Positions 3 through 11,543 are shown, numbered from the stretch's first letter. The stretch is DNA of 11,543 bases from Candidatus Hadarchaeum sp. (GCF_049969415.1 NZ_JBMFOX010000030.1:1-11543); one strand, 5' to 3'. Numbers and translations: made by a program. The notes: generated from the sequence alone by a model not told the origin.

Positions 3-83
3 GGGAGGGTGAGGAAGAACAAGGGCGCAGCCTTCACCGACCGCCTGAAGCGTGTCCGCTCTGAACGCGGGATCCTCTTATAA
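3..83 (+). other. Possible 3' end of an upstream CDS (GRVRKNKGAAFTDRLKRVRSERGILL*), unidentified
   Basis: Frame is open from the window edge to TAA at 81-83. Too short to assign. Confidence 0.25.
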
Positions 84-213
84 CCACCGTTTTGGAGCTA
101 GCCATTTGATAAACGATGAGGTGCGCGTTACAGCTGGAATGGGCTAATGAAGCGATCCTCTAGTTGATCAACACGTAGCATCCCAGGCGGTTCAAACAGG
201 TGACCATTGTCCC

Positions 214-242
214 TTGACAGACGGGTTGTCTTGGACTATAAT
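214..242 (+). promoter_or_regulatory. Consensus sigma70/sigmaA promoter of the operon
   Basis: TTGACA at 214-219, 17-bp spacer (220-236), TATAAT at 237-242, directly upstream of the ATG at 252. Confidence 0.9.
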
Positions 243-244
243 TA

Positions 245-262
245 TGTAAAAATGAAATTACA
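245..262. promoter_or_regulatory. Candidate operator, inverted repeat TGTAA-N8-TTACA over the predicted transcription start and start codon
   Basis: TGTAA at 245-249 and TTACA at 258-262. A second inverted repeat, TGTC-N4-GACA (208-219), overlaps the -35 box. Function is inferred only. Confidence 0.35.
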
Positions 263-1061
263 GACGTCCACCAAGGAAAAACCAATAGACCCAGATAGGT
301 TGCTCAAAGCGGTTTTCATCGACAAGCACAGTTTCGTCCCTCTTTACCGTCAAATAGCTGATGCTATCCGCCTCGCCATCGTTAAGGGCTACTTAAAACC
401 AGGAGAGCTGCTGCCCTCCGAACAAGAGATAGCGGGGACATTGGGGGTAGCAAAGATGACGGTCCGGCAGGCGCTGTTGGAACTAAAACGGGAAGGATTG
501 GTTTACCGCCACCGTGGAGTTGGCACCTTCATTGCCTTCCCCAAGTTCGAACACCGCCTAGGCAGCTTAGTGAGCTTTACAGAAGACATCAGATCGCGTG
601 GTATGGTCCCCAGTTCCAGGATCCTGTTCTTCGGCCATGTCCCCAGCGACGAGATGGTCGCCGCTCGCTTCGGCATCGAAAAGGGTGAGCCCGTGCTAAG
701 AATCTACCGTGTGAGGTTTGCTAACAACCAACCCGTCGGAATACATGAGGCTTATCTTCCTGGAGATATCCCTATCTCTAAAAACGAGCTCGAGACGGAG
801 GAATCCCTTTATGCCCTCCTAGAGGATAAGGGATTTCAGCTTGTGGAAGCAGAGGAGAGTATCGAGGCTGTGCCAGCCGACCCCACGCAATCGGAGCTTT
901 TGGGCCTGAATGTCGGCGACCCCTTATTAAAGGTTGTCCGCACGGTGTTCACGACTGACCGAAGGCCGGTCGAGTACGTCATCGCCATTTACCGTTCAGA
1001 TCTATATAGGTATTCCACGCGACTCAGGCGGGAACCTTTCGGGCGAGGTGAGAAATGCTGA
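252..1061 (+). CDS. GntR family transcriptional regulator, HutC/UTRA subfamily
   Basis: N-terminal wHTH (PLYRQIADAIR...LPSEQEIAGTLGVAKMTVRQAL...RGVGTF) and C-terminal UTRA domain (SFTEDI, RVRFANNQP, SLYALLE, RPVEY...YRSDLY). Start moved from TTG 207 to ATG 252 because 207 lies upstream of the promoter. Confidence 0.95.
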   Translation: MKLQTSTKEKPIDPDRLLKAVFIDKHSFVPLYRQIADAIRLAIVKGYLKPGELLPSEQEIAGTLGVAKMTVRQALLELKREGLVYRHRGVGTFIAFPKFEHRLGSLVSFTEDIRSRGMVPSSRILFFGHVPSDEMVAARFGIEKGEPVLRIYRVRFANNQPVGIHEAYLPGDIPISKNELETEESLYALLEDKGFQLVEAEESIEAVPADPTQSELLGLNVGDPLLKVVRTVFTTDRRPVEYVIAIYRSDLYRYSTRLRREPFGRGEKC

Positions 1062-1768
1062 TCTCCGAGGAAAGGCCGGCTCTGCTCATTATCGATATGC
1101 AAAATGCCTTCCTACATGAGCAAGGTCACCTCGTAAAGCTGAGTGAAAATAACAAGCCGTATTTAGCGATCGTCCCCAATATAGCACGGCTTGCTGATGT
1201 GGCCCGCTCTCTAAAGATTCCAGTGATCTATTTGCGCCACGCTTACAGGCGTGGCTATATCGACGGGGGCATCTTGGTTCATGAGCTTTTCCCCTCGGAC
1301 AAGGAGGCGGGTGGTTGGCTGGATGGTACATGGGATACGGAGATCTTCGAGCCTCTGAAGCCCAAAGATTCGGACATCGTTATCAAGAAAAACAGATACA
1401 GTGGATTCTTTGGCACCGACCTCGACCAATTATTACGAAATTTGGGGTGTAACACTCTTATCATCACAGGGATCCACTCCAACGTCTGCTGTGACTCCAC
1501 TGCCCGGGATGCAGTCTTTCGGGATTATCGCGTGTACTTCGTGAGCGACGCCACAGCTGCCGCCGATGAATCCCTACACGCGGCGACCCTGCGCAATATA
1601 GAGCGCTACTTCGGGCGGGTAGTGACCACGGATGAGGTCATTGAACACCTGTTAAGGCTGAAAGGAGGTGAGAGGGGGGTAAGCAAAACAAGTCCCCAAA
1701 GAAAAAAGGAAGGTGGCGGGCAAGTAAAGAAGTTAAAGCATGAAAACGAAGAAAGGAGGTCATCATGA
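1055..1768 (+). CDS. Isochorismatase-family cysteine hydrolase (RutB/amidase-like)
   Basis: Asp-Lys-Cys triad motifs ALLIIDMQNAF, KKNRYSGF and TGIHSNVCCDSTARDA. RBS GAGGTGA upstream; overlaps the GntR stop. Confidence 0.92.
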   Translation: MLISEERPALLIIDMQNAFLHEQGHLVKLSENNKPYLAIVPNIARLADVARSLKIPVIYLRHAYRRGYIDGGILVHELFPSDKEAGGWLDGTWDTEIFEPLKPKDSDIVIKKNRYSGFFGTDLDQLLRNLGCNTLIITGIHSNVCCDSTARDAVFRDYRVYFVSDATAAADESLHAATLRNIERYFGRVVTTDEVIEHLLRLKGGERGVSKTSPQRKKEGGGQVKKLKHENEERRSS

Positions 1769-2790
1769 AAAGGTTCCTTGTGGTTTTTTGTGGGCTGCTT
1801 TTGTTCCTTTTCGTGTCTCTCGGAGCGGAGATTAAAGTAGCGTATATCACCTCAAGGGGCGGCCTTGGAGACCTCTCATGGAACGATATTGGGTTCGCAG
1901 GGGTTACGAAGGCAGCTCAAGACTTCGGCATTACGGTGCGCGTGGTCGAATCCCCGGACCCGGTGGGCATGGGTGAGAAGCTGCTGCGTGATGCTGCACG
2001 CGCTGGTTTTAACATTGTGATTACGATGGAGTACGCACATTTGACTGTCCTCCCTACGGTTGCAGCGGACTTTCCGAATACGTTATTCGTAATGCTAAAT
2101 TACGTCATTGAAGCTTCCAACGTCGCCTCGATCGTCTTCTACGAACATGAGGGTTCTTTCTTGGCCGGTGCCCTTGCAGCTATGGTGGTGGGAAATAACT
2201 CCATACCCGGCATCAGTGGGAAGAAGATTATCGGGGTGATAGGCGGCACAAAGTCGCTAGGCATTGACAAGTTCGTTGTCGGCTATAAAGAGGGAGCTCA
2301 ATACATAGATCCCGAGGTCCAGGTTCTCGTGGCTTACAGCGAGACTTTCTCTGATCCAGCGAAGGGACGCGAACTCGCACTGGCGATGTTCAACGCCGGT
2401 GCCGATGTGGTTTACCAGGTAGCTGGGGCTACGGGCATGGGTGTGATACAGGCAGCGAAGGAAACGGGCAAATATGCAATCGGTGTGGACACTGACCAGG
2501 ACTACATTGCTCCTGAGCATGTTTTGACCAGCGTCTTGAAGAGAGCCGATATCGCCTTGTATCTCGTCATCAAGGATTACGTTGAAGGTCGCCACCCTGG
2601 CGGCAAAGTGTACCACATGAACCTGAAGAATAATGGTGTTGGGCTATCTGAGATGAAATATACCCGCCATCTGATCCCAGCTGATTACATTACAAAGCTT
2701 GAAGAAATCAAGAAAAAGATCCTCACGGAGGAGATCAAGGTGACCGACGTCACCGGTCTTTCTAAACCATATTCGGAGATTGATCCCTGA
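1765..2790 (+). CDS. BMP family (PnrA/TmpC-like) ABC transporter substrate-binding protein, nucleoside type
   Basis: Signal peptide, GGLGDLSWND, EHEGSFLAGALAA, FSDPAKG, GADVVYQVAGATGMG, AIGVDTDQ, VLTSVLKR. Strong RBS AAAGGAGGT at 1752-1760; ATGA overlap with the upstream gene. Confidence 0.95.
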   Translation: MKRFLVVFCGLLLFLFVSLGAEIKVAYITSRGGLGDLSWNDIGFAGVTKAAQDFGITVRVVESPDPVGMGEKLLRDAARAGFNIVITMEYAHLTVLPTVAADFPNTLFVMLNYVIEASNVASIVFYEHEGSFLAGALAAMVVGNNSIPGISGKKIIGVIGGTKSLGIDKFVVGYKEGAQYIDPEVQVLVAYSETFSDPAKGRELALAMFNAGADVVYQVAGATGMGVIQAAKETGKYAIGVDTDQDYIAPEHVLTSVLKRADIALYLVIKDYVEGRHPGGKVYHMNLKNNGVGLSEMKYTRHLIPADYITKLEEIKKKILTEEIKVTDVTGLSKPYSEIDP

Positions 2791-2800
2791 AAAGTAGCCG

Positions 2801-2835
2801 AAGGGGGCGGGGGCTCTCGTGTCGCCGCCCCCTTT
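2801..2835 (+). terminator. Intercistronic GC-rich stem-loop after the binding-protein gene (partial terminator or mRNA stabiliser)
   Basis: AAGGGGGCGG (2801-2810) pairs with CCGCCCCCTT (2825-2834); only a short T run follows. Confidence 0.7.
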
Positions 2836-2855
2836 CAAAAACAAGTGATTTCGCT

Positions 2856-4394
2856 ATGCCGCTTCTAGAAGCCCGTGGTATAACGAAAATCTTTCCAAAC
2901 GTTGTGGCGAACGACCATGTCGATCTCGTGGTTGACGAAGGGGAGATATTGGGCCTGGTTGGGGAAAACGGCGCGGGGAAGACAACGTTGATGCGCATAA
3001 TCTACGGTCTTGAACGCCCCAACGCGGGTGAAATCTTCTGGAAAGGGAAAATGGTGTCCATCAACTCTCCCCAAGACGCCATGCAATTGGGCATCGGCAT
3101 GGTGCATCAGCACTTCCAGCTGTTCCCGTCCCTTTCCGTCACGGAGAATGTGGTACTGGGGAATGAGCCGAGGACGGGCCCTTTTCTGAATCGCCGGCAG
3201 GCCTATGAGAGAATAAAAGAATTGATCCAACGCTTCGGCTTCGCCCTCGATCTCAAAGCGCCGGTAAGGTCTCTCTCAGTAGGCCAGCAACAGAAGGTCG
3301 AGTTACTAAAGGCTTTGTACCGCCATGTCAAGTTACTCATCCTGGACGAGCCGACTGCCGTCTTGACGCCACAAGAGGTAGACTCATTAATGGAGCTCTT
3401 AAGACAATTGGCCGCGTCCGGCATCGCAATCATTCTAATTTCTCACAAGCTCCGAGAGGTTTTGGGTGTGGCTTCCCGGATCACGGTCATGCGAAATGGT
3501 CGCGTTGTCGCCAACATGCGGCCCACAGAAGTCACCGAAGACCAGCTAGCCAGCTTGATTGTAGGGATGGAGCTTCAGGGACTGGGGAAATCCTGGGGAG
3601 AGCGTCGGGAAAAGAGAAGGGAGCCAGTGCTCGTGGTACAAAATCTCTCCGTGCTCAACGACCGCGGCCGAATCGCCGTGGACAACATCACCTTTGAACT
3701 CTCAAGGGGCGAGATACTCGGGATAGCGGGGGTCGAAGGGAATGGGCAACAGGAGCTTGTGGAGGCCCTCATCGGAGTGCGGAGAGTGTTGAACGGCAAG
3801 ATATTCCTGAACGGAAAAGAGATAACCCGCGCTAAACCCGTCCACCGCCGTCGGCTTGGGCTGGCGGCAATCCCAGGGGACAGAGTGAAGGAGGGGACCG
3901 CAGCCACAGCCAGTGTGGCCGAAAATCTCATAACGACGACATATCGGCGATTTCCCTACAGTTTCATGGGGGTTTTTAGAGAAAGAAACATAAGGGAATT
4001 CGCCCGGATGACTCTCGAGAAATTTCGCATCATCGCTGAGCCCACTACGATCACTCGTACGCTCTCGGGAGGTAACTTACAACGCCTGGTGATCGCCCGC
4101 GAACTCTCCACGGACCCCTTGGTACTTATTGCCGTTCATCCCTCGCGCGGCCTGGACGTGCAGAGCATGGTGGAGGTTCATAGACACTTGATAAATTTGC
4201 GTAATCAGGGACGCGCGGTCCTGCTCATTTCGACAGACTTGGATGAATTATTGGCGCTCTCAGACCGCCTCTTAGTAATCTTCCGTGGCCGCATTGTGGG
4301 TGAGGTGTCGCCCCGTGCGACGACGCTCGCAGAGCTCGGCCTGCTCATGCTCGGAGGGACGATTGCGCAAGCGCATGAGGGTCTTTCTGGGTGA
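2856..4394 (+). CDS. ABC transporter ATP-binding protein with two NBDs (CUT2/NupA-YufO type)
   Basis: Walker A GENGAGKTT, Q-loop MVHQHF, LSVGQQQ, Walker B LLILDEPT, ISHKL. Second NBD has degenerate Walker A GVEGNGQQE and LSGGNLQ. Confidence 0.96.
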   Translation: MPLLEARGITKIFPNVVANDHVDLVVDEGEILGLVGENGAGKTTLMRIIYGLERPNAGEIFWKGKMVSINSPQDAMQLGIGMVHQHFQLFPSLSVTENVVLGNEPRTGPFLNRRQAYERIKELIQRFGFALDLKAPVRSLSVGQQQKVELLKALYRHVKLLILDEPTAVLTPQEVDSLMELLRQLAASGIAIILISHKLREVLGVASRITVMRNGRVVANMRPTEVTEDQLASLIVGMELQGLGKSWGERREKRREPVLVVQNLSVLNDRGRIAVDNITFELSRGEILGIAGVEGNGQQELVEALIGVRRVLNGKIFLNGKEITRAKPVHRRRLGLAAIPGDRVKEGTAATASVAENLITTTYRRFPYSFMGVFRERNIREFARMTLEKFRIIAEPTTITRTLSGGNLQRLVIARELSTDPLVLIAVHPSRGLDVQSMVEVHRHLINLRNQGRAVLLISTDLDELLALSDRLLVIFRGRIVGEVSPRATTLAELGLLMLGGTIAQAHEGLSG

Positions 4395-5424
4395 GATCGC
4401 CAGAATTGTTCTACTATTAGCCGTCTCCTTCTTTGTTACCGGCTTAATCATCATTTTTACAAAAGAGAACCCACTAAATGTTTTCCGAATCTTGGTGCGA
4501 GCCGCGGTGTGGAGTCGCCAAGGCCTTGCAGAGACGTTGTCTGCAGCTACGCCTTTGATCTTCACTGGGCTGGCGATTGCGGTCGCCTTCAAGGCCGGGC
4601 TCTTTAACGTGGGGGTAGAGGGAAGCCTATACTTAGGCGCTTTTAGCGCGGCGTGGGTTGGATTCACCCTGACACACCTACCAGGGTGGGTGTTGATTTC
4701 GCTGGCCCTCCTCGTTAGCGGGCTGATTGGCGGGCTTTGGGCTCTGGGCCCGGCGGTGGCCAAGGTATGTTATAACGTCGACGAGATCGTCACCACACTT
4801 ATGCTGAACTACGTTGCCATATTTTTCACTACCTACCTCGTCACTTATATCTACGGCGTTCCCGGCTTTGCCAACGCCATGTCTTTCCCCATTGTGCCCG
4901 CTGCCAGGCTTCCCCGGCTCTCTCCGCCATCACAACTGAACCTTGGTTTCGTCATTGCCATCCTCATCGCTCTCGTGCTCTGGTTTATCTTCCGGCGAAC
5001 TGCGTTCGGATACGAGATTCGTATGTTGGGGGCAAACCCATTGTTCGTAAAGTGGTGCGGGATGCCGGATACGAAAATCGTGATAAAGGCTATGTTCCTA
5101 AGCGGCTTCTTGGGGGGTGTAGCTGGAGCAATCCAGATCTTGGGGATTCACTACCGGTTCATCGCGAATTTCTCTCCTGGTTACGGGTATACCGGCATAG
5201 CCGTGGCCCTACTCGCTCGCAACAATCCCTTGGGCGTCCTCTTTAGCTCCTTCCTCTTGGGGGCCATCTACAACGGCGAGTCCATCGTCGAGCTCATGAC
5301 AAACATCCCCATGGAAATACCCCGGATCTTTGAGGGGATCATCATCGCTTTGACGTCGGCTGAGTTGGTGATGGGGTTCCACCTGAGGCGCCGAAGGGTT
5401 GGGAGACAGGGGGACAAAGGATGA
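4375..5424 (+). CDS. ABC transporter permease (BPD_transp_2, NupB/YufP type)
   Basis: TPLIFTGLAIAVAFKAGLFNVGVEG, EIVTTLMLNYVA, GYGYTGIAVALLARNNP and many TM helices. Start set to ATG 4375 because the longer GTG extension lies inside the ATPase gene. Confidence 0.93.
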   Translation: MRVFLGEIARIVLLLAVSFFVTGLIIIFTKENPLNVFRILVRAAVWSRQGLAETLSAATPLIFTGLAIAVAFKAGLFNVGVEGSLYLGAFSAAWVGFTLTHLPGWVLISLALLVSGLIGGLWALGPAVAKVCYNVDEIVTTLMLNYVAIFFTTYLVTYIYGVPGFANAMSFPIVPAARLPRLSPPSQLNLGFVIAILIALVLWFIFRRTAFGYEIRMLGANPLFVKWCGMPDTKIVIKAMFLSGFLGGVAGAIQILGIHYRFIANFSPGYGYTGIAVALLARNNPLGVLFSSFLLGAIYNGESIVELMTNIPMEIPRIFEGIIIALTSAELVMGFHLRRRRVGRQGDKG

Positions 5425-6317
5425 ATTTTGTGGACCTCGTTGGAGTAACTCTGAGACAGGCTGCTCCGTTGATGTTTGCTGCCTACGGGGGGCTGTTCAG
5501 CTACCACGTGGGGATCATCAACATTGCTTTGGAAGCAGAGATGCTCGCTGGGGCCTTTGCGGCGCTTGTGGTCACAGCCTGGACTGGGAATGTTGAACTG
5601 GGTCTTTTGGGGGCAATGTTCGCCGCGGGCCTCCTGGGATTGATCTTCAGCCTTCTCATCGAAAATCTGCAGGCCAATCTTGTAACGACCGCCTTGGGAC
5701 TAAATACACTGACGATTGCTTTTGCACGTCTTCTGATGTGGGTGGCCACTGGGAGCCGCGGAGCGTTCGTTCCCCAGGAGCTGGCCACCCTGCCAAGCTT
5801 GCGGATTCCCCTGCTGTCATCAGTACCAGTGCTACAAGCCTTTTCAGGTCACAGCATTCTCGTGTATGGGGCTTGGCTGGCTTGGGCTTTCACCTCACTT
5901 TTGCTCTACCACACCCCGTTGGGCCTGCGTATTCGCGCAGTGGGGGAAAACCCCGAGGCGGCACGGGCAGTAGGGCTCAAGATCAAGTCGGTGCGGATAA
6001 TGGCTCAGCTTCTCTGTGCGGTTCTATGTGGAGTGGGAGGAGCCCAGCTTTCCTTGGGCGATTTGCGGCTTTTCACATCTGGTATGACGGCGGGCAAAGG
6101 GTTCATTGCCCTCGCAGCTATTTACTTCGGACGCGGTAATCCTGCTTTCACGACCATTGCCTGTGTTCTCTTCGGTTTCTTTGACGGCCTTCAGTCCCGG
6201 CTCCAGCTGTGGACCGAAATCCCCCCACAGTTAGCACAGATGATCCCTTTCCTGAGCGTGGTGGTGACGCTTGTGCTCGTCTCTTGGAGAGAAGCGCATA
6301 GGAGAGTGAGAGCATGA
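5421..6317 (+). CDS. ABC transporter permease (BPD_transp_2, NupC/YufQ type)
   Basis: GIINIALEAEML, TPLGLRIRAVGENPEAA, AGKGFIALAAIYFG. ATGA overlaps at both ends. Confidence 0.94.
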   Translation: MNFVDLVGVTLRQAAPLMFAAYGGLFSYHVGIINIALEAEMLAGAFAALVVTAWTGNVELGLLGAMFAAGLLGLIFSLLIENLQANLVTTALGLNTLTIAFARLLMWVATGSRGAFVPQELATLPSLRIPLLSSVPVLQAFSGHSILVYGAWLAWAFTSLLLYHTPLGLRIRAVGENPEAARAVGLKIKSVRIMAQLLCAVLCGVGGAQLSLGDLRLFTSGMTAGKGFIALAAIYFGRGNPAFTTIACVLFGFFDGLQSRLQLWTEIPPQLAQMIPFLSVVVTLVLVSWREAHRRVRA

Positions 6318-7282
6318 GAGGCCAAGCCGTGCTCGTAAGCGGCTATGCAAGTCTCGACTCGTTCATCTTGGTCGACCATATCCGTGGCTTGGGCGAGACC
6401 TCCTCTGTACTTGCTTTCAAAGGGCTTGATCGACCTCTGCCCGGGGGCTGTGCCTGCAACATCGCCATGGCGTGTGCGCGCCTCGGGATCGGGAGTCTCC
6501 TCATCACGGCTTTGGGAGAAGACGTCGAGGGTATAACCTACAAGGAGCGCTTGGCATCCGCAGGTATCGATACGCGCTTCGTATGTTTGGTGAGAGGGGT
6601 AGCCTCTCCCAGGACAGTGCTGGTCAACGATCAAGATGGGGGCCATTTAACCTTCTATTATTCAGGTGCAAGCGATCACTTAATAGAGATGATGAAGGGA
6701 AACCTTGCCGAGCTTGAGGGACTCGACGTGCGTTACAGCGTCATCACTGTCGGGGACCCGGGGTTCACACGAGAGCTTGTTGTACTCCTTCACCGAAGGA
6801 GGGTGCCGATCCTTTGGGCCTTTAAGGCCGATATGCGTGCTTACCCTTACCATCTTCTTCAGCTCTTGTTGGAAGTTGCTGAATACTTAGTAGTAAATGA
6901 GGCGGAAGCTCGGCTGCTGTGCAAATTATTCGCCCTGGGCGACATAAGTGCACTTCTGGACTTTGGCCCCAAGGGTGTCGTGGTAACGAAGGGAAGCAGG
7001 GGGAGCGAAGTTATTACGGATGTTGGGAGGGAGACCATCCCTTCCGTCCAGCCTTGCCGGATGGTGGATCCCACAGGGGCGGGGGATGGGTTCGTGGCAG
7101 GGGTACTGTATGGCCTCTATCATGGTAAATCCCTCGCGGTGTCAGCGCGGGTCGGAGCTACGCTCGCCTCGTTTGTCCTTGAGGAATGGGGAGCTCAAAC
7201 AGCCTTACCTGGCCTTGCAGAGCTCAAAGCACGGTATTGTAAAAATTTTGGCTCATGGCCGGTGGAGGAGGGAGACCAATGA
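6314..7282 (+). CDS. PfkB/ribokinase family kinase (nucleoside or sugar kinase)
   Basis: PGGCACNIA (PfkB signature 1), NEAE (NxxE), VVVTKGSRG, VDPTGAGDGF (signature 2, catalytic Asp). Confidence 0.93.
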   Translation: MRGQAVLVSGYASLDSFILVDHIRGLGETSSVLAFKGLDRPLPGGCACNIAMACARLGIGSLLITALGEDVEGITYKERLASAGIDTRFVCLVRGVASPRTVLVNDQDGGHLTFYYSGASDHLIEMMKGNLAELEGLDVRYSVITVGDPGFTRELVVLLHRRRVPILWAFKADMRAYPYHLLQLLLEVAEYLVVNEAEARLLCKLFALGDISALLDFGPKGVVVTKGSRGSEVITDVGRETIPSVQPCRMVDPTGAGDGFVAGVLYGLYHGKSLAVSARVGATLASFVLEEWGAQTALPGLAELKARYCKNFGSWPVEEGDQ

Positions 7283-8010
7283 ACCAGCCTCGCACCTGGT
7301 ACTTGCATCAATCTGGGGCGCTCCCAGAGGTTGCCATTTTGGTAGGCGATTCGAAGAGGTTAGATCTATTCGCGGAGAAACTTAAACATTCGGACACAGA
7401 TAGAAGCCACCACGGCTTCGCTCTGTTGAAAGGCACGTATGAAGGCATCCCTCTCTCAGTAACGGCTTATGGCATAGGTGCTCCTGCCATCGCGGTCGCT
7501 ATCGAGGAGCTCGCCACGCTGGGGGCAAAAATCATTGTCAGGGCGGGGACGGTAATGGCGTTGTCCTGCCCGCTCGGGAGCTTGATATTGGCAGAGGGGG
7601 GTGTCAGGTTAGAAGGGACTTCTTCTTCCTATCTCCCGATCGAATTCCCAGCCATTCCCGACCCCGAGTTGTTTGAGGGCTTCGCAAGGGCCCTCTCCTC
7701 CTTGGGTGTACCTTATTACTTGGGGTTAGTCGCCAGCCTTGATGGCCTGTACCCTCGAAAGCTAAAAGAGGAAAAGATCGATGTGAAGCTGTTTCACAAG
7801 TTCGGAGTGGTAGGAATGGACATGGAGACAGCAGCGGCCTACGTGGTGAGCAAGTTCCTGGGATTAAAAGCGGTGAGCCTTTGCCTGGCCAGCGTGGAAT
7901 TCGGGAGCTTCAACACTCTGGCTGAGGGGGAGAGGCGGTCACTGGAGGAGCTACTGGTGGAAGCGACCCTCAAGGGAATCAAAAGCTATTTTGAGAGGGA
8001 AGGCTGGTGA
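7279..8010 (+). CDS. Nucleoside phosphorylase, NP-I (PNP_UDP_1, uridine phosphorylase-like), divergent
   Basis: LVGDSKR, GIGAPAIAVAIEEL, IVRAGT, RLEGTSSSYLP, GMDMETAA. ATG 7279 follows RBS GGAGGAGG and overlaps the pfkB stop (ATGA). Confidence 0.88.
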   Translation: MNQPRTWYLHQSGALPEVAILVGDSKRLDLFAEKLKHSDTDRSHHGFALLKGTYEGIPLSVTAYGIGAPAIAVAIEELATLGAKIIVRAGTVMALSCPLGSLILAEGGVRLEGTSSSYLPIEFPAIPDPELFEGFARALSSLGVPYYLGLVASLDGLYPRKLKEEKIDVKLFHKFGVVGMDMETAAAYVVSKFLGLKAVSLCLASVEFGSFNTLAEGERRSLEELLVEATLKGIKSYFEREGW

Positions 8011-8786
8011 TGAGAATGTTCCAGGAGGGAAAGAAGCTTGTTGTGGGCATGGTACACTTGCACCCTTTGCCAGGCTCGCCGCGGTTCGATGGTAACCTGG
8101 ACGAAGTGGCTGAGGCTGCTCTTGAAGATGCTTTAGCGTTGGCAGATGAAGGGGTAGACGCCCTGTTGGTGGAGAACTACGGCGACGTGCCTTACTTGAC
8201 TAGGAAGCTTCCCTTGTTGACAGTGGTAGCAATGGCTCACATCGTTGACCTGATCAAATCTAAAATTGTCATCCCCTTGGGCATAAACGTGCAGTTTGAC
8301 GCTTATGAGGCCGAACTAGTGATCGCCACTGTCTGCAAGGGAAATTTTGTTAGGATTGAAGGCTTTGTCGACACCCTAATCACGGACACTGGCCTCGTGA
8401 CCCCCTGTGCTGCTGAGTGCCTCCGTCTTCGCCGGCAAGGAGGGGGTGAGAAAGTTGCGATTTGGGCCGATGTCCAGGTCAAGGAAACCCAGCCCATTGG
8501 CAACCGCAACATTGTGGCTGCTGCAGTGGCTGCTGCGAAGAACTTAGCCGACGCAATCATTGTCACCGGCAGTGCGACCGGCTCCGCCCCTGCGGCGAAA
8601 ACGCTGAAGGAGGTGAAGGCGGCCGTTGACCGGCCAGTGCTGGTCGGCAGTGGACTGACACCGGAGAACGCCCCGGAGTTGCTTGCGATCGCCGACGGAG
8701 CGATCGTCGGCACAGCGTTAAAGACAGGGGGGCGGATCGATAGACGGAAGGTCCGGAGGCTTATGGAAGTGATTCGAAAGCTATGA
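8010..8786 (+). CDS. BtpA/SgcQ family protein (TIM barrel, function unknown)
   Basis: VGMVHLHPLPGSP, GVDALLVENYGDVPY, PLGINV, ADVQVK, ADAIIVTGSATG, PVLVGSG, DGAIVGTALK. Start is ATG 8010 (TGATG coupling) or GTG 8007. Confidence 0.93.
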   Translation: MRMFQEGKKLVVGMVHLHPLPGSPRFDGNLDEVAEAALEDALALADEGVDALLVENYGDVPYLTRKLPLLTVVAMAHIVDLIKSKIVIPLGINVQFDAYEAELVIATVCKGNFVRIEGFVDTLITDTGLVTPCAAECLRLRRQGGGEKVAIWADVQVKETQPIGNRNIVAAAVAAAKNLADAIIVTGSATGSAPAAKTLKEVKAAVDRPVLVGSGLTPENAPELLAIADGAIVGTALKTGGRIDRRKVRRLMEVIRKL

Positions 8787-8799
8787 GCGGAGGCGCCAA

Positions 8800-10239
8800 A
8801 TGAAGACTATACAGATGTTAATAGACGGTGAGTGGAGATCAGCAAAGTCTACTTATAACGTTATCAATCCGGCAAACACCGAGGAGGTGGTTGCAAAGGC
8901 CCCTCTTGGGACCCGGAGCGATGCCCAAGAGGCAATCGAGGCTGCGTACCGTGCTTTTTCCGCGTGGTCGCAGAAAAGCCCTTACGAAAGGGCAAAGCTA
9001 CTAAGGAAAGCGGCGGCCATTGTGATGGAGCGCATTGAGGAATTGGGTCGCTTGCTCACGCTCGAGACCGGTAAACCGCTTAAAGACTCCTTGAAGGAAA
9101 TCGAGTTTGCTGTCCGGGTCCTTCAATATTATGCCGAGGAGGCCACGAGGGTTTTCGGCGAGTGGGTTCCGACGATTTCCCAATCCGTCCGCAGTATTGT
9201 GATCCGTCAGCCCGTGGGTGTGGCAGGCCTAATCGTGCCTTGGAACTTTCCTGTAGACCTTCTGGCTTGGAAGCTTGGCCCGGCACTTGCCGCCGGTTGC
9301 ACTGTGGTTATCAAGCCCTCCAGTGAGGCGCCAGCAGCGGCCACGGAGTTTGTAAGAGCGGTCAACGATGCTGGCTTTCCACGGGGAGTCATAAATGTAG
9401 TTCCAGGAAAGGCCTCTGAGGTAGGCTTGGAGTTAGTAGAGAACCCCAAAGTTGCAAAACTTAGCTTTACCGGAGAGACGGAAACAGGCAAGTACATTCT
9501 GGAGAGGGCAGCAAAACATTTGAAAAGGGTTTCCCTCGAGCTCGGGGGGAACGCTGCTGCCATCGTATGCGATGACGCTCCTTTGGAGGTGGCGATCTCG
9601 GGCTGCGTGCGTCGTGCATTTTCCCATATGGGGCAGATATGTATAAGTATCAATAGAGTATACATTCTCAAAGAAATAGCCAAATCTTTCATTGAGGGGG
9701 TCGTTGAAGCGACCACGAAGCTGAAAGTCGGCAATGGACTAAACCCGGAAACTGACCTGGGGCCTATGTTTCGGGAGGAGCTGCGGCAGAAGACAAAAGA
9801 GCACATCAGGGACGCCCTCGAAAAGGGAGCGAGATTACTTTGTGGAGGCAAGGAACCTGAAGGGGAGGAGTACGAGAAAGGTTTCTTCTTCATTCCCACG
9901 GTGCTCATAGACGTTGATCACCGGATGCGAATTATGCGTGAGGAGACCTTCGGCCCGGTGATGCCTATCATGGTGGTTCAGAGCCTTGACGAGGCCATTA
10001 AGTTAGCGAACGACACGCGCTACGGCTTAGCAGCATATGTCTTCACAAAAGACCTCTCCAAAGCAATAATTCTTGCAGAACGACTTGAGGCCGGGGGAGT
10101 GGCTGTAAACATCAACGACGTTACAGAACTCCAGGCACCATTTGGTGGTTGGAAACAAAGCGGCATAGGCCGTGAACTCTCACGACATGCTCTTGATAGT
10201 TATTTAGAATACAAACATATCCGCATAGGAATAATTTAA
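8800..10239 (+). CDS. NAD(P)-dependent aldehyde dehydrogenase (SSADH/GabD-like)
   Basis: PWNFP, KPSSE, FTGETETG, LELGG (catalytic Glu), GQICIS (catalytic Cys), EETFGP, PFGGWKQSGIGRE. RBS GGAGG upstream. Confidence 0.96.
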   Translation: MKTIQMLIDGEWRSAKSTYNVINPANTEEVVAKAPLGTRSDAQEAIEAAYRAFSAWSQKSPYERAKLLRKAAAIVMERIEELGRLLTLETGKPLKDSLKEIEFAVRVLQYYAEEATRVFGEWVPTISQSVRSIVIRQPVGVAGLIVPWNFPVDLLAWKLGPALAAGCTVVIKPSSEAPAAATEFVRAVNDAGFPRGVINVVPGKASEVGLELVENPKVAKLSFTGETETGKYILERAAKHLKRVSLELGGNAAAIVCDDAPLEVAISGCVRRAFSHMGQICISINRVYILKEIAKSFIEGVVEATTKLKVGNGLNPETDLGPMFREELRQKTKEHIRDALEKGARLLCGGKEPEGEEYEKGFFFIPTVLIDVDHRMRIMREETFGPVMPIMVVQSLDEAIKLANDTRYGLAAYVFTKDLSKAIILAERLEAGGVAVNINDVTELQAPFGGWKQSGIGRELSRHALDSYLEYKHIRIGII

Positions 10240-10335: not shown

Positions 10336-10360
10336 CATAGTGCCCCGTTTATTGTGTCTG
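10336..10360 (-). repeat. Probable right terminal inverted repeat of the IS256 remnant
   Basis: On the minus strand ...ACACAATAAACGGGGCACTA overlaps the transposase stop, resembling IS256-type ends as I recall them (ACACAA...CACTA). No partner end found in the window. Confidence 0.5.
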
Positions 10361-10655
10361 GGCGGCATGGTAGCTCCCCATCGACACTTCCGCAAACCCC
10401 CGCAGCCTGCGGCCTTCCAACCTCTCGGAGAGGCTCCTCAGCACCAAGTACAGGAGCTTCTCCACCGCCTCCTCCCGAGAGAATCCACCACCTTCGTCCG
10501 CCGCTTCACTTCCCTGCTTAGGCACTCCAACTGGTTTGTGGTATAGAAGCACCTCCTGATGGGCTTTGGATGGCGAAGGAAGGCAAGTAGAGCGTGAGAT
10601 TTGGCCTCCCAGTGCGCGACGATCCGGGGATAGATCGAGCCCTAACGTTCCCTTC
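10336..10655 (-). mobile_element. IS256-family insertion sequence remnant (3' part of the transposase plus probable right end)
   Basis: Minus strand reads RER*GSIYPRIVAHWEAKSHALLAFLRHPKPIRRCFYTTNQLECLSREVKRRTKVV, then frameshifts into FSREEAVEKLLYLVL...RRLRGFAE...QTQ* (TAA 10349-10351). The TTNxxE...KRRTKV motif is typical of IS256. Internal TAG and frameshift make it a pseudogene. Confidence 0.88.
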
Positions 10656-10659
10656 GCCT

Positions 10660-10750
10660 TTTCATCGCTCCCTTCAAGGGGAGCTCCTCACATTGGAGGG
10701 GCCCATCGCAAATCGAGGGAGCTTGGTCTTCAGCCGGAAGCAGTGGAAGA
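10660..10750 (+). pseudogene. Remnant of an Arc/FitA-like ribbon-helix-helix antitoxin
   Basis: HRSLQGELL at 10663-10689, then after a frame change AHRKSRELGLQPEAVE. Both resemble Arc-family antitoxins that precede PIN toxins (recognition from memory). The 5' end is missing at the IS junction. Confidence 0.5.
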
Positions 10751-10764
10751 AATGGCCGCTAGGG

Positions 10765-10885
10765 CGAAGGTGGTGGACCATCTGGCCGCCTTCCAGCTCG
10801 CCTTGGAGACGGGGTTGACTACCTATGACGCAAGCTACCTTTTGCTTGCCCGCTCGTTGAAGATCTCTCTAGTGGAGCTTCAGAG
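10765..10885 (+). pseudogene. C-terminal remnant of a VapC/FitB PIN-domain toxin
   Basis: VVDHLAAFQLALETGLTTYDASYLLLARSLKISLV matches the PIN C-terminal GLxxYDAxY motif. The N-terminal Asp motif and the terminal TxD are absent. Confidence 0.72.
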
Positions 10886-10941
10886 GGCCCAAGGTTGGAC
10901 TCTTTGGCCCGGCGCATTCCCAATTTGATCCAAGGCTGATC

Positions 10942-11118: not shown

Positions 11119-11164
11119 CTGGACTTTGGTCTTAAAAGTCACTAAATACTAGACCACAGTCCAG
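11119..11164. repeat. Inverted repeat CTGGACTTTGGTCT-N18-AGACCACAGTCCAG
   Basis: 14-bp arms with one mismatch (11119-11132 and 11151-11164), just downstream of the reconstructed vapC stop on the minus strand. Confidence 0.75.
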
Positions 11165-11168
11165 AAAG

Positions 11169-11543
11169 TCACTGAGTTTGGGAGAGGAGGCGGTCAAGAA
11201 GGAGCCCTCTGGGCCCTCCTTGACCCTGAGGAAAGCTCGGTCGTTGGTAAGGAAGGCCGTGGCGCCCGCTGCCCTGGCTGTGGCAAAAAGCAAGGCGTCC
11301 GGGGTTCTCAGCCCATAGCTGGCTCGAAGCCTTGCGTCCTCGGCGGCAATCTCCACATCGGGAGCCAAAAACCGAACATTCGGGATCCCCAAAAGTAGCT
11401 CCAAGGCTTCCCGCACCTTCCCCTCCCCCTTCTCCCAGAGCTTCACCAAGAACTCATGAGGGTGAGAGTGGAAAGGATGAGCTCAACCTCCCCCTCGGCC
11501 TAGGGTGGCAAATGGCTTCTCGGAGAAGGCGGAGTAAGGAGGG
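11169..11543 (-). pseudogene. vapC: VapC/PIN-domain toxin pseudogene, 5' end beyond the window
   Basis: Reconstructed as PPYSAFSEKPFATLGR/GEVELILSTLTLM/EFLVKL...ARLRASYGLRTPDALLFATA...FLTNDRAFLRVKEGPE/LLLDRLLSQTQ*. LRTPDA and FLTND are PIN motifs. Apparent indels near 11492, 11455 and 11206. Confidence 0.8.

Follow-up and report, generated by a model that had tools for sequence, protein, structure and literature searches.

A single contig of Candidatus Hadarchaeum sp. (NZ_JBMFOX010000030.1, here C30; 11,543 nucleotides, all of which were analysed and are referred to below as the window) carries on its + strand, between positions 207 and 10239, ten co-directional open reading frames (ORFs) that we read, tentatively and with slightly less than even confidence, as a repressor-controlled operon for the uptake and breakdown of a nucleoside-type compound. 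This reading is based upon sequence comparisons, and it would place the ten genes in a widespread operon family that is biochemically uncharacterised. The encoded proteins are a GntR/HutC-family regulator, an isochorismatase-family cysteine amidohydrolase, the four components of an ATP-binding cassette (ABC) importer of the BMP type, a PfkB-family kinase, a phosphorylase-like member of the nucleoside phosphorylase-I (NP-I) family, a BtpA/SgcQ-family barrel protein and an aldehyde dehydrogenase (ALDH). The genome to which the contig is assigned, that of a small subsurface archaeon, comprises 1.47 Mb in 138 contigs and is 95% complete. In a literature search whose coverage excluded supplements and subscription journals, no paper on this operon or on catalysis by a BtpA-family protein was found among the titles examined.

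The distribution of the gene set was examined by searching with the ten window proteins in 170 BtpA loci, of which 11 and 79 came from collections with one genome per species and 80 were metagenomic (a few contigs being present twice). Genes for the isochorismatase-family hydrolase, PfkB, NP-I and BtpA occurred together in 40 of these loci; all ten genes were found in eight, and nine of them (all but the ALDH) in 24 more. The recurrent order, GntR-BMP-ATPase-permease-permease-isochorismatase-PfkB-NP-I-BtpA, shows little variation: the isochorismatase and PfkB genes are swapped in some loci, and the GntR gene lies 3' of BtpA in those of Enterococcus, Vagococcus and Atopobacter. The carriers include Enterococcus hirae, Vagococcus humatus, Atopobacter sp., Clostridium lundense, C. 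rectalis, Brassicibacter mesophilus, Anaerobacterium chartisolvens, members of the Oscillospiraceae and Anaerolineae, Actinomycetes such as Propionicimonas, and one metagenome-assembled genome from the Mollicutes. The search for conserved synteny of BtpA, PNP_UDP_1, PfkB, isochorismatase and BMP genes that the initial annotation of this DNA had proposed is thus positive, the bacterial records concerned representing four or more phyla (among them Bacillota, Chloroflexota, Actinomycetota and Mollicutes), and the objection that the set might not be conserved elsewhere falls away.

The operon loci differ in the genes that follow BtpA. In Firmicutes-type loci, BtpA is succeeded by an iron alcohol dehydrogenase (Fe-ADH) and a TrpA-like barrel. 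This tail was observed in 27 of the 40 loci, an ALDH tail, to which type the window belongs, in nine, neither in four and both in none. Two of the tail-less loci (L065 and L105) lie on contigs that end within a few hundred bases of BtpA, and the other two (L047 and L048) continue for at least 2.7 kb. The Fe-ADH is nearest to the alcohol dehydrogenase domain of AdhE and to FucO (lactaldehyde reductase); the window ALDH, with 3jz4 as its best match in the PDB, is nearest to GabD-type succinate-semialdehyde dehydrogenase. As an aldehyde-reducing and an aldehyde-oxidising enzyme occupy the same place in the operon, the mutually exclusive tails point to an aldehyde intermediate in the pathway. They are the best evidence for it, and they back the aldehyde step that had been proposed earlier.

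The layout of the window is summarized in Table 1. ORF calls and junction coordinates bear out the earlier description of ten co-directional genes with overlaps at seven of the nine junctions, the only gaps being of 65 nt between the BMP and ATPase genes and of 13 nt between BtpA and ALDH. The family assigned to each gene was likewise recovered by Pfam and NCBIfam, and, as the Pfam matches span nearly the whole of the models, none of the ten proteins seems to be broken. None of the ten reached an NCBIfam equivalog cut-off, the BtpA/SgcQ subfamily model being the only one passed; no protein is therefore at the equivalog cut-off of a characterised pathway, in keeping with the earlier statement that the set matches none of the deoCABD, rutA-G, psuKG and xanthine dehydrogenase-type clusters. 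Some starts need comment. For permease 1 the better-supported start is the ATG at 4375, which lies behind ggaggga and gives a 20 nt overlap with the ATPase gene; for the phosphorylase it is the ATG at 7279, which lies behind GGAGGAGGG, coincides with the start of protein record P0130 and gives an ATGA overlap with the PfkB gene. The start of the first gene is ambiguous between TTG 207, ATG 252 and TTG 300. Rfam and tRNA scans of the window gave no matches, and a collection of E. coli genomes contained no DNA match to it.

Table 1. Promoter and genes of the putative operon in the 11,543-nucleotide window
Feature	Position	Strand	Basis
Sigma-70-type -35/-10 pair, perfect	214..242	+	TTGACA, 17 nt, TATAAT; 12/12 match
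GntR/HutC-family regulator, winged helix and UTRA	252..1061 (open from TTG 207)	+	Pfam GntR 6e-21, UTRA 9e-37
Isochorismatase-family cysteine amidohydrolase, RutB/N-carbamoylsarcosine-amidase-like	1055..1768	+	Pfam 9e-49
BMP/PnrA-family substrate-binding protein, N-terminal hydrophobic signal sequence	1765..2790	+	Pfam Bmp 3e-62
ABC ATPase, two fused nucleotide-binding domains, CUT2 type	2856..4394	+	Pfam ABC_tran, two stretches
ABC permease 1	4375..5424 (open from GTG 4285)	+	Pfam BPD_transp_2 2e-37
ABC permease 2	5421..6317	+	Pfam BPD_transp_2 1e-28
PfkB-family kinase, ribokinase/nucleoside-kinase type	6314..7282	+	Pfam 6e-36
NP-I (PNP_UDP_1) phosphorylase-like protein, variant subclade	7279..8010 (open from ATG 7255)	+	Pfam 3e-30
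BtpA/SgcQ-family phosphate-binding (beta/alpha)8 barrel	8007..8786	+	Pfam 2e-72; TIGR00259
NAD(P)-dependent aldehyde dehydrogenase, nearest GabD-type	8800..10239	+	Pfam Aldedh 1e-171

The regulator belongs to the HutC subfamily of the GntR family, its PF00392 and PF07702 matches covering residues 46-109 and 130-268, respectively, and GntR homologues are present in 45 of the 170 BtpA loci. The transporter genes have the layout of a BMP-type CUT2 importer, with PF02608, two PF00005 and two PF02653 domains encoded in consecutive genes. The binding protein resembles solved nucleoside receptors in sequence, its PDB matches including TmpC/PnrA, BmpA and BmpD. The best NCBIfam match of the ATPase was a putative B6 ABC ATPase (473 bits against a cut-off of 670), and the binding protein scored 89 bits with the corresponding B6 transporter model (cut-off 400); a vitamin B6 transporter was considered and ruled out, as these scores are far under the cut-offs.

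The best PDB matches of the kinase are 3b1n ('ribokinase, putative') and 2c49 ('sugar kinase MJ0406'), both of which we take to be nucleoside kinases. Residues D15, GG44-45, N195xxE198 and G255-x-G257-D258 are conserved in 38 orthologues of this protein. Its scores with ribokinase, nucleoside-kinase and ribose-1-phosphate (R1P) kinase models are similarly low, and all NCBIfam kinase equivalogs lie far below their cut-offs (for the R1P-kinase models NF041134 and NF053626, 59 bits against 500 and 56 against 330); a pseudouridine-kinase model was absent among its NCBIfam matches. The R1P-kinase model was the best or second-best match of the BtpA-adjacent kinases of haloarchaea and of the Hadarchaeota paralogues (101-196 bits, cut-off 330). 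The window kinase shows no preference for that model, and its family label was dropped as proof of an R1P kinase.

The phosphorylase-like protein, for which 1odi was the best PDB match, falls short of the equivalog cut-offs for uridine phosphorylase (TIGR01718, 113 bits against 280) and DeoD (TIGR00107, 53 against 232). It retains R35, R96-x-G98-T99 and M190-E191, which are conserved across approximately 40 orthologues. In the uridine phosphorylase (UP) and purine nucleoside phosphorylase (PNP) of E. coli, phosphate is held by three arginines and a Thr/Ser and ribose by a Met-Glu pair, to which the retained residues presumably correspond. Neither the uracil-type Gln/Arg nor the purine-type Asp is found at the aligned places.

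For the hydrolase, the best PDB matches are 3irv and RutB (8bkd). Its triad of D14, K112 and C145 shows no variation among 39 operon orthologues or among 20 sequences from the subclade and outgroup, on the basis of which the protein is predicted to be a cysteine amidohydrolase akin to RutB, N-carbamoylsarcosine amidase and biuret hydrolase and not a true isochorismatase. It is not a RutB by the family model (TIGR03614, 127 bits against a cut-off of 378), and the window encodes no other Rut family. By analogy with the chemistry of its family, this enzyme may act in deacylation of the base or in hydrolysis of a ring fragment. No histidine occurs at any of the positions that 90% or more of the 39 orthologues have in common. 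Nicotinamidases have a metal site, and the missing histidine speaks against a site of that type; together with a nicotinamidase match of 25 bits, it led us to rule out nicotinamide riboside as the principal substrate.

BtpA is the one window protein with an unequivocal subfamily assignment (TIGR00259, 237.8 bits against a cut-off of 153.4; PF03437, 244 against 30, covering positions 2-253 of 254). A sequence search of solved structures found no BtpA-family protein, TrpA and GGGPS being weak matches only. The AF2 model, with a pLDDT of 95.6, is a (beta/alpha)8 barrel for which Foldseek and VIA-align give a tie (TM ~0.6, Z 17-21) among HisA/PriA, TrpA, HisF, TrpF, ThiE, HPS, GGGPS and KDPG aldolases, and it has the standard phosphate site of HisA/TrpA/HPS-type barrels. 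The modelled fold thus suggests binding of a phosphate ester and nothing more specific. PfkB was detected by tblastn in 59 of the 170 loci, and among 103 others there were a divergent PfkB in 12 (haloarchaea included) and a mannose-type phosphotransferase system (PTS) in 10, with TrpA-like and PGM/PMM genes also present. Since the commonest neighbours of BtpA are sugar-phosphorylating systems, the protein almost certainly acts, as far as gene context can tell, on the product of the kinase.

Several of these neighbourhoods merit description. In ten loci, among them L093, L104, L109, L172 and L186 (at about 7000-12500), BtpA lies directly 3' of mannose/sorbose-type PTS genes, often with a TrpA-like gene and in L093 also with an Fe-ADH; some of these loci are from Oscillospiraceae or Pseudoflavonifractor. 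This recurrence of BtpA, TrpA-like and alcohol dehydrogenase genes suggests that the trio serves as a portable module that handles phosphorylated sugars. The genomes of Haloferax, Halobellus and Halorussus (L135, L147, L154, L167, L177, L181 and L193; about 10000-11800) have a convergent PfkB kinase gene after BtpA. The genome under study has a second PfkB-BtpA pair on contig C39 (L031, 21-8146), where it stands with two Opp-type permeases, a PurD-like (GARS) ligase, an SBP_bac_5 binding protein and a GntR/UTRA regulator 42% identical to that of the window; its position beside a phosphoribosylamine-using ligase hints at ribosylamine chemistry. Relatives in the same family possess a looser cluster (L026, on contig C11 of genome G009, 10700-20000) consisting of a BMP-ABC importer, BtpA, one NP-I, PfkB, a second BtpA and a second PfkB, without isochorismatase, ALDH or GntR genes; with the R1P-kinase model (cut-off 330), the second of these kinases reaches 196 bits.

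Within the operon family, the window and its near relatives form a subclade that is set apart by the two enzymes facing the aglycone. The window phosphorylase is the lone deviant at four of 15 near-invariant columns (Pro33Ser, Arg53His, Glu54Gly and Thr213Ser) and in addition has Phe/Tyr165Leu, whereas the other 39 orthologues all have the Arg-Glu pair, Pro and Thr, and 38 of them have Phe or Tyr at 165. Nine near relatives (48-74% identical) share the changes, in the forms Ser-His-His-Gly/Asn-Phe and Leu-Asp-Gly-Leu. Similarly, the hydrolase is the lone deviant at four of 12 near-invariant columns (113, 141, 142 and 181); its near relatives, which are 61-88% identical, share the changes at 113, 141 and 142, while position 181 differs in the nearest. 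Outside this group the next-best hydrolase match is at most 47% identical, and the hydrolases of other operons are about 33% identical. Decay after transfer was considered as a cause and is ruled out, since the near relatives share the phosphorylase changes and three of the four hydrolase changes. The kinase and BtpA show no deviation at near-invariant columns. That the aglycone-facing enzymes have changed together and the kinase and BtpA have not is a pattern that fits a substrate shift; given the separate hydrolase lineage and the altered phosphorylase pocket, the preferred aglycone of the subclade, to judge from these residues, is probably neither the one favoured by the main bacterial operon nor that of a canonical uridine or purine nucleoside. 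The hydrolase, phosphorylase and BtpA genes very probably travel together in the relatives, since the lengths recorded as the longest contig for the three sets of proteins agree in at least seven cases (9570, 14534, 11875, 78020, 11316, 10988 and 28624 bases). The taxonomic labels within the subclade are mixed, comprising Bipolaricaulota (the 78 kb contig), Hadarchaeum, Bathyarchaeia and Nitrososphaerota.

The following pathway would be consistent with these observations. Binding of the substrate, or of a phosphorylated intermediate, to the UTRA domain would cause the HutC-type regulator to free the promoter, and the BMP-type ABC system would take up a nucleoside-type compound. The Cys-Lys-Asp amidohydrolase may then act on the aglycone or on an N-substituent, stripping it of an amide or carbamoyl nitrogen, the NP-I enzyme would split the N-glycosidic bond, and PfkB would phosphorylate the ribosyl part to a pentose phosphate or 1,5-bisphosphate. 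BtpA, in place of the ribose-1,5-bisphosphate (R15P) isomerase of haloarchaea, is proposed to isomerise or cleave the sugar phosphate, and the products would be a triose phosphate and a short aldehyde, which ALDH would oxidise here and Fe-ADH would reduce in the fermentative bacterial versions. The catabolic scheme of the initial annotation is sustained as regards protein families, synteny, the lack of a match to characterised pathways and the aldehyde step; for the modified nucleoside as substrate, which is plausible, the indications are indirect. The host encodes elsewhere a uridine phosphorylase (a paralogue on contig C2, 282 bits against a cut-off of 280), as well as a methylthioadenosine (MTA) phosphorylase and MtnA that pass their cut-offs; of five cultured carriers four have DeoB; and the window phosphorylase is atypical on its aglycone side. 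None of the same five carriers has an R15P isomerase over the cut-off, and these two counts indicate that the operon is neither a canonical route nor dependent upon the known isomerase. A bolder and rather unlikely version of the proposal is that BtpA is a sugar-phosphate enzyme of a new kind, either a non-homologous substitute for an R15P/aldose-1-phosphate isomerase or a pentose-phosphate aldolase, that with PfkB and NP-I it makes up a third pentose (bis)phosphate route, shared by bacteria and archaea and leading from ribosyl compounds to a triose phosphate and a short aldehyde, and that the subclade of the window, through its own amidohydrolase and its Arg-to-His phosphorylase, is adapted to a modified nucleoside with an amide or carbamoyl group derived from RNA turnover in sediments.

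A number of points weigh against the operon reading and its pathway. Every step given above is deduced, and a sigma-70 promoter in an archaeal host may go unused. A search of 40 relatives found no close copy of the operon, the best BtpA identity being 46%. BtpA is tied structurally to isomerases, aldolases, synthases and decarboxylases alike, so that an isomerase and an aldolase are equally compatible with it, and the kinase scores equally poorly with ribokinase, nucleoside-kinase and R1P-kinase models, so that it may phosphorylate any of several compounds. The window phosphorylase lacks an inter-subunit arginine that 39 of 40 orthologues possess, so that it may not be a normal phosphorylase. 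The split between ALDH and Fe-ADH/TrpA-like tails largely follows two lineages and counts as about one evolutionary event, not as 36 observations. Lastly, for a GabD-like ALDH an anionic semialdehyde is at least as good a substrate match as glycolaldehyde, if not a better one; the aldehyde could accordingly be derived from the base rather than from the sugar.

The alternative that survives best, though it is unlikely, is ordinary nucleoside scavenging, in which NP-I would produce R1P, PfkB would convert this to R15P, and the R15P isomerase and type III RuBisCO of the host would finish the route, with BtpA, the hydrolase and ALDH confined to accessory roles such as deamidation of the base for nitrogen and detoxification of an aldehyde. 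Both host enzymes are indeed encoded, on contigs C13 and C6, and pass their cut-offs (TIGR00511, 444 bits against 314; type III RuBisCO, 608 against 497); to judge by their structure names, solved BMP-family receptors bind ordinary nucleosides; and an NP-I and PfkB pairing is a feature of the Thermococcales and haloarchaeal pathways as outlined in a published account (PMC9700705). However, conservation in the operon is no looser for BtpA and the hydrolase than for the kinase and phosphorylase, and in the five cultured carriers, none of which has an R15P isomerase over the cut-off and four of which have DeoB, the core must be self-sufficient. The host already possesses uridine and MTA phosphorylases that pass their cut-offs, and the window phosphorylase is atypical at both base-side and phosphate-side residues.

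That the substrate is not a nucleoside at all, but some other ribosyl or sugar-amine compound, for example a glycosylamine, an adduct of the Amadori type or a metabolite or vitamin that bears a ribosyl group, appears improbable to us. NP-I would in that case cleave another ribosyl bond, and PfkB-BtpA would be a general sugar-phosphate module, as might be expected from its presence without NP-I on C39 (alongside the PurD-like ligase, the GntR/UTRA regulator and an ABC system of the Opp type) and elsewhere with mannose-type PTS genes. Some members of the BMP family bind riboflavin and other non-nucleosides, one solved relative of the binding protein has been deposited as an atrazine periplasmic binding protein, and the kinase weakly matches fructoselysine 6-kinase (73 bits). 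Set against this are the presumed ribose-binding Met-Glu and phosphate-binding Arg/Thr residues, which are conserved in 40 NP-I orthologues, the nearest solved relatives of the kinase, which as noted we take to be nucleoside kinases, and the nucleoside receptors among the closest solved relatives of the binding protein.

The operon reading must also be weighed against the possibility, in our estimate a decidedly improbable one, that the window is foreign and does little if anything for the archaeon, being either a misbinned bacterial contig or a recent, unexpressed transfer. The first indication of this kind is the promoter. The perfect TTGACA-17-TATAAT pair ends 10 nt upstream of ATG 252, and chance would supply a 12/12 site only some 0.004 times per 11.5 kb on both strands (equal base frequencies being assumed), although promoter-like sites are not enriched in the window overall (7 against 5.9 +/- 2.6 in shuffles). 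The earlier claim of one consensus promoter thus holds as to the match itself, but the promoter is of a bacterial type and the genome is archaeal: it encodes TBP, for which only the four archaea among 14 control genomes score. As the host is an archaeon, the sigma-70 consensus is not its own promoter type. The bacterial counterparts L038, L048 and L125 have TTGACA-type promoters and GntR-like operators 5' of the GntR gene; in the window, inverted repeats of the form AGAC-5 nt-GTCT (219-231) overlap the promoter and could be the operator of the GntR regulator, and the AT-rich segment 237-254 could serve as an alternative, archaeal TATA element. Further indications of foreign origin are the Bipolaricaulota-labelled relatives on the 78 kb contig (BtpA 75% identical over 80% of its length, hydrolase 82%), the lack of a close copy in the 40 relatives, and an estimated genome contamination of 2.09%, the contig making up 0.8% of the assembly.

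Other features of the contig, however, tie it to the archaeal genome. Its GC content of 54.4% is close to that of the genome (53.9%), and its tetranucleotide profile fits (r = 0.84, the 17th lowest value among the 50 contigs with a length of 5 kb or more). A segment of the 3' flank that looks non-coding (10336-10663; no Rfam family or tRNA) is repeated on contigs C99 (88%) and C60 (85%), and two copies at 69-71% identity are present in the same-family genome G011, which also matches the PIN region downstream. On these grounds contig C30 most likely belongs to the archaeal genome. Moreover, archaeal labels are attached to other members of the subclade, and the archaeal family has native BtpA-PfkB-NP-I-BMP clusters of a related kind. 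All ten genes are intact, and relatives keep the residues that are specific to the subclade. The perfect sigma-70 promoter and the Bipolaricaulota-labelled relatives suggest a bacterial origin, and the operon was most likely acquired by the Hadarchaeota archaeon from bacteria. In a BtpA tree of 184 sequences constructed with FastTree, the window branched within a well-supported clade of 15 rows that included L039-L041; the deeper branches were unresolved, and the tree permits no inference of a donor or of the direction of transfer.

Three other features were observed towards the ends of the contig. Its first 100 bases match the start of C60 (window 25-100, 79%). An intact PIN-domain (VapC-like) gene lies at 11132-11449 on the - strand, its PIN region matching G011 at 75%. 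A 120-aa ORF at 10566-10928 (+) has no Pfam match, and its C-terminal part resembles a decayed PIN fragment.

That the operon serves salvage in place of breakdown, recovering a base or the precursor of a cofactor (for example a riboside of nicotinamide, of B6 or of a purine intermediate) and using the hydrolase as a nicotinamidase-like deamidase, is very improbable: although the transporter parts find their best NCBIfam matches in 'putative B6 ABC transporter' models, the isochorismatase family includes nicotinamidases (with the weak match noted above) and PurD adjoins the paralogous PfkB-BtpA pair on C39, the B6 models remain far under their cut-offs, the hydrolase has no conserved histidine for a nicotinamidase metal site, and the ALDH/Fe-ADH tail is typical of carbon catabolism.

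A catabolic operon for a nucleoside-type compound would be of interest for several reasons. In sediments, guts and the subsurface, nucleosides released by dead cells serve as a major food, and the operon is not explained by the known ribose routes (deo/pentose phosphate and the two archaeal pentose bisphosphate pathways). It occurs in cultured Enterococcus, Vagococcus and Clostridium and also in uncultured Chloroflexota, Actinomycetota and archaea. Its elucidation would provide a first catalytic function for the BtpA/SgcQ family, a widespread one with members in E. coli, cyanobacteria and archaea, together with a function for the TrpA look-alike of bacteria and the identity of the imported compound. 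The archaeal copy would in addition represent a whole catabolic operon that has moved between domains with a textbook bacterial promoter still attached.

Comparison with known systems indicates where the operon agrees with them and where it departs. In the pentose bisphosphate pathway of haloarchaea, which is non-carboxylating, R15P isomerase, rbsK (PfkB) and urdpase (NP-I) are encoded in one operon, and the pathway ends in dihydroxyacetone phosphate (DHAP) and glycolaldehyde, the latter being reduced (Sato et al., 2022; PMC9700705). Shared with the window are an NP-I phosphorylase (annotated there as a uridine phosphorylase) and a PfkB kinase (annotated there as a ribokinase) together with an enzyme that would convert the sugar phosphate, and, on the proposed reading, an end in triose phosphate and a short aldehyde, C2 in haloarchaea, for an NAD(H) enzyme (PMC9700705). 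The window, however, has BtpA in place of the IF-2B-family R15P isomerase, HAD ribulose-bisphosphate phosphatase and FucA-type aldolase of that pathway, encodes a HutC regulator, a cysteine amidohydrolase and an importer of the ABC type besides, and would have its aldehyde oxidised by ALDH, not reduced. In the Thermococcales pathway, nucleoside phosphorylases are joined by an R1P kinase that is ADP-dependent, by R15P isomerase and by type III RuBisCO (PMC9700705). The logic of nucleoside to R1P to R15P is common to both, and the host possesses R15P isomerase and type III RuBisCO elsewhere in its genome; the BtpA, hydrolase and ALDH steps have no counterpart in that pathway, and none of the five cultured bacterial carriers of the operon has an R15P isomerase over the cut-off.

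Among better-known bacterial systems, the deo operon of E. coli and Bacillus employs the DeoA/DeoD phosphorylases, the DeoB mutase and the DeoC aldolase to yield glyceraldehyde-3-phosphate and acetaldehyde. It shares with the proposed route phosphorolysis and the cleavage of a pentose phosphate into a triose phosphate and a short aldehyde for an alcohol or aldehyde dehydrogenase, but neither the DeoB nor the DeoC family occurs among the ten proteins, a kinase is present instead of the mutase, and BtpA (with the TrpA-like protein in bacteria) would stand in for the class I aldolase. The DHAP shunt for 5'-deoxyadenosine and methylthioadenosine combines a phosphorylase or nucleosidase and a kinase with the MtnA isomerase, a class II aldolase and an aldehyde reductase. 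NP-I, a kinase, the conversion of an aldose-1-phosphate to a ketose-1-phosphate, an aldolase and an alcohol dehydrogenase acting on a short aldehyde make up a logic common to the two; the operon differs in having an importer and an amidohydrolase and in lacking IF-2B and class II aldolase genes. In the sgcXBCQAER locus of E. coli, SgcQ, the BtpA-family member, adjoins, like BtpA, a system that delivers a phosphorylated sugar, but that locus is PTS-based, has no NP-I, isochorismatase or ALDH gene and is itself uncharacterised. RutB of the Rut pathway is the best named relative of the hydrolase and has the same Asp-Lys-Cys triad. That pathway ends in a semialdehyde that is reduced, and RutA requires O2, whereas many carriers of the operon are strict anaerobes; by Pfam, the other Rut families are not found among the ten proteins, and the PsuG C-glycosidase family of psuKG is likewise absent from the window. 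What is new here is the archaeal ALDH-type copy, the mutually exclusive tails, the hydrolase/phosphorylase subclade, the parallel canonical enzymes of the host and the retained bacterial promoter.

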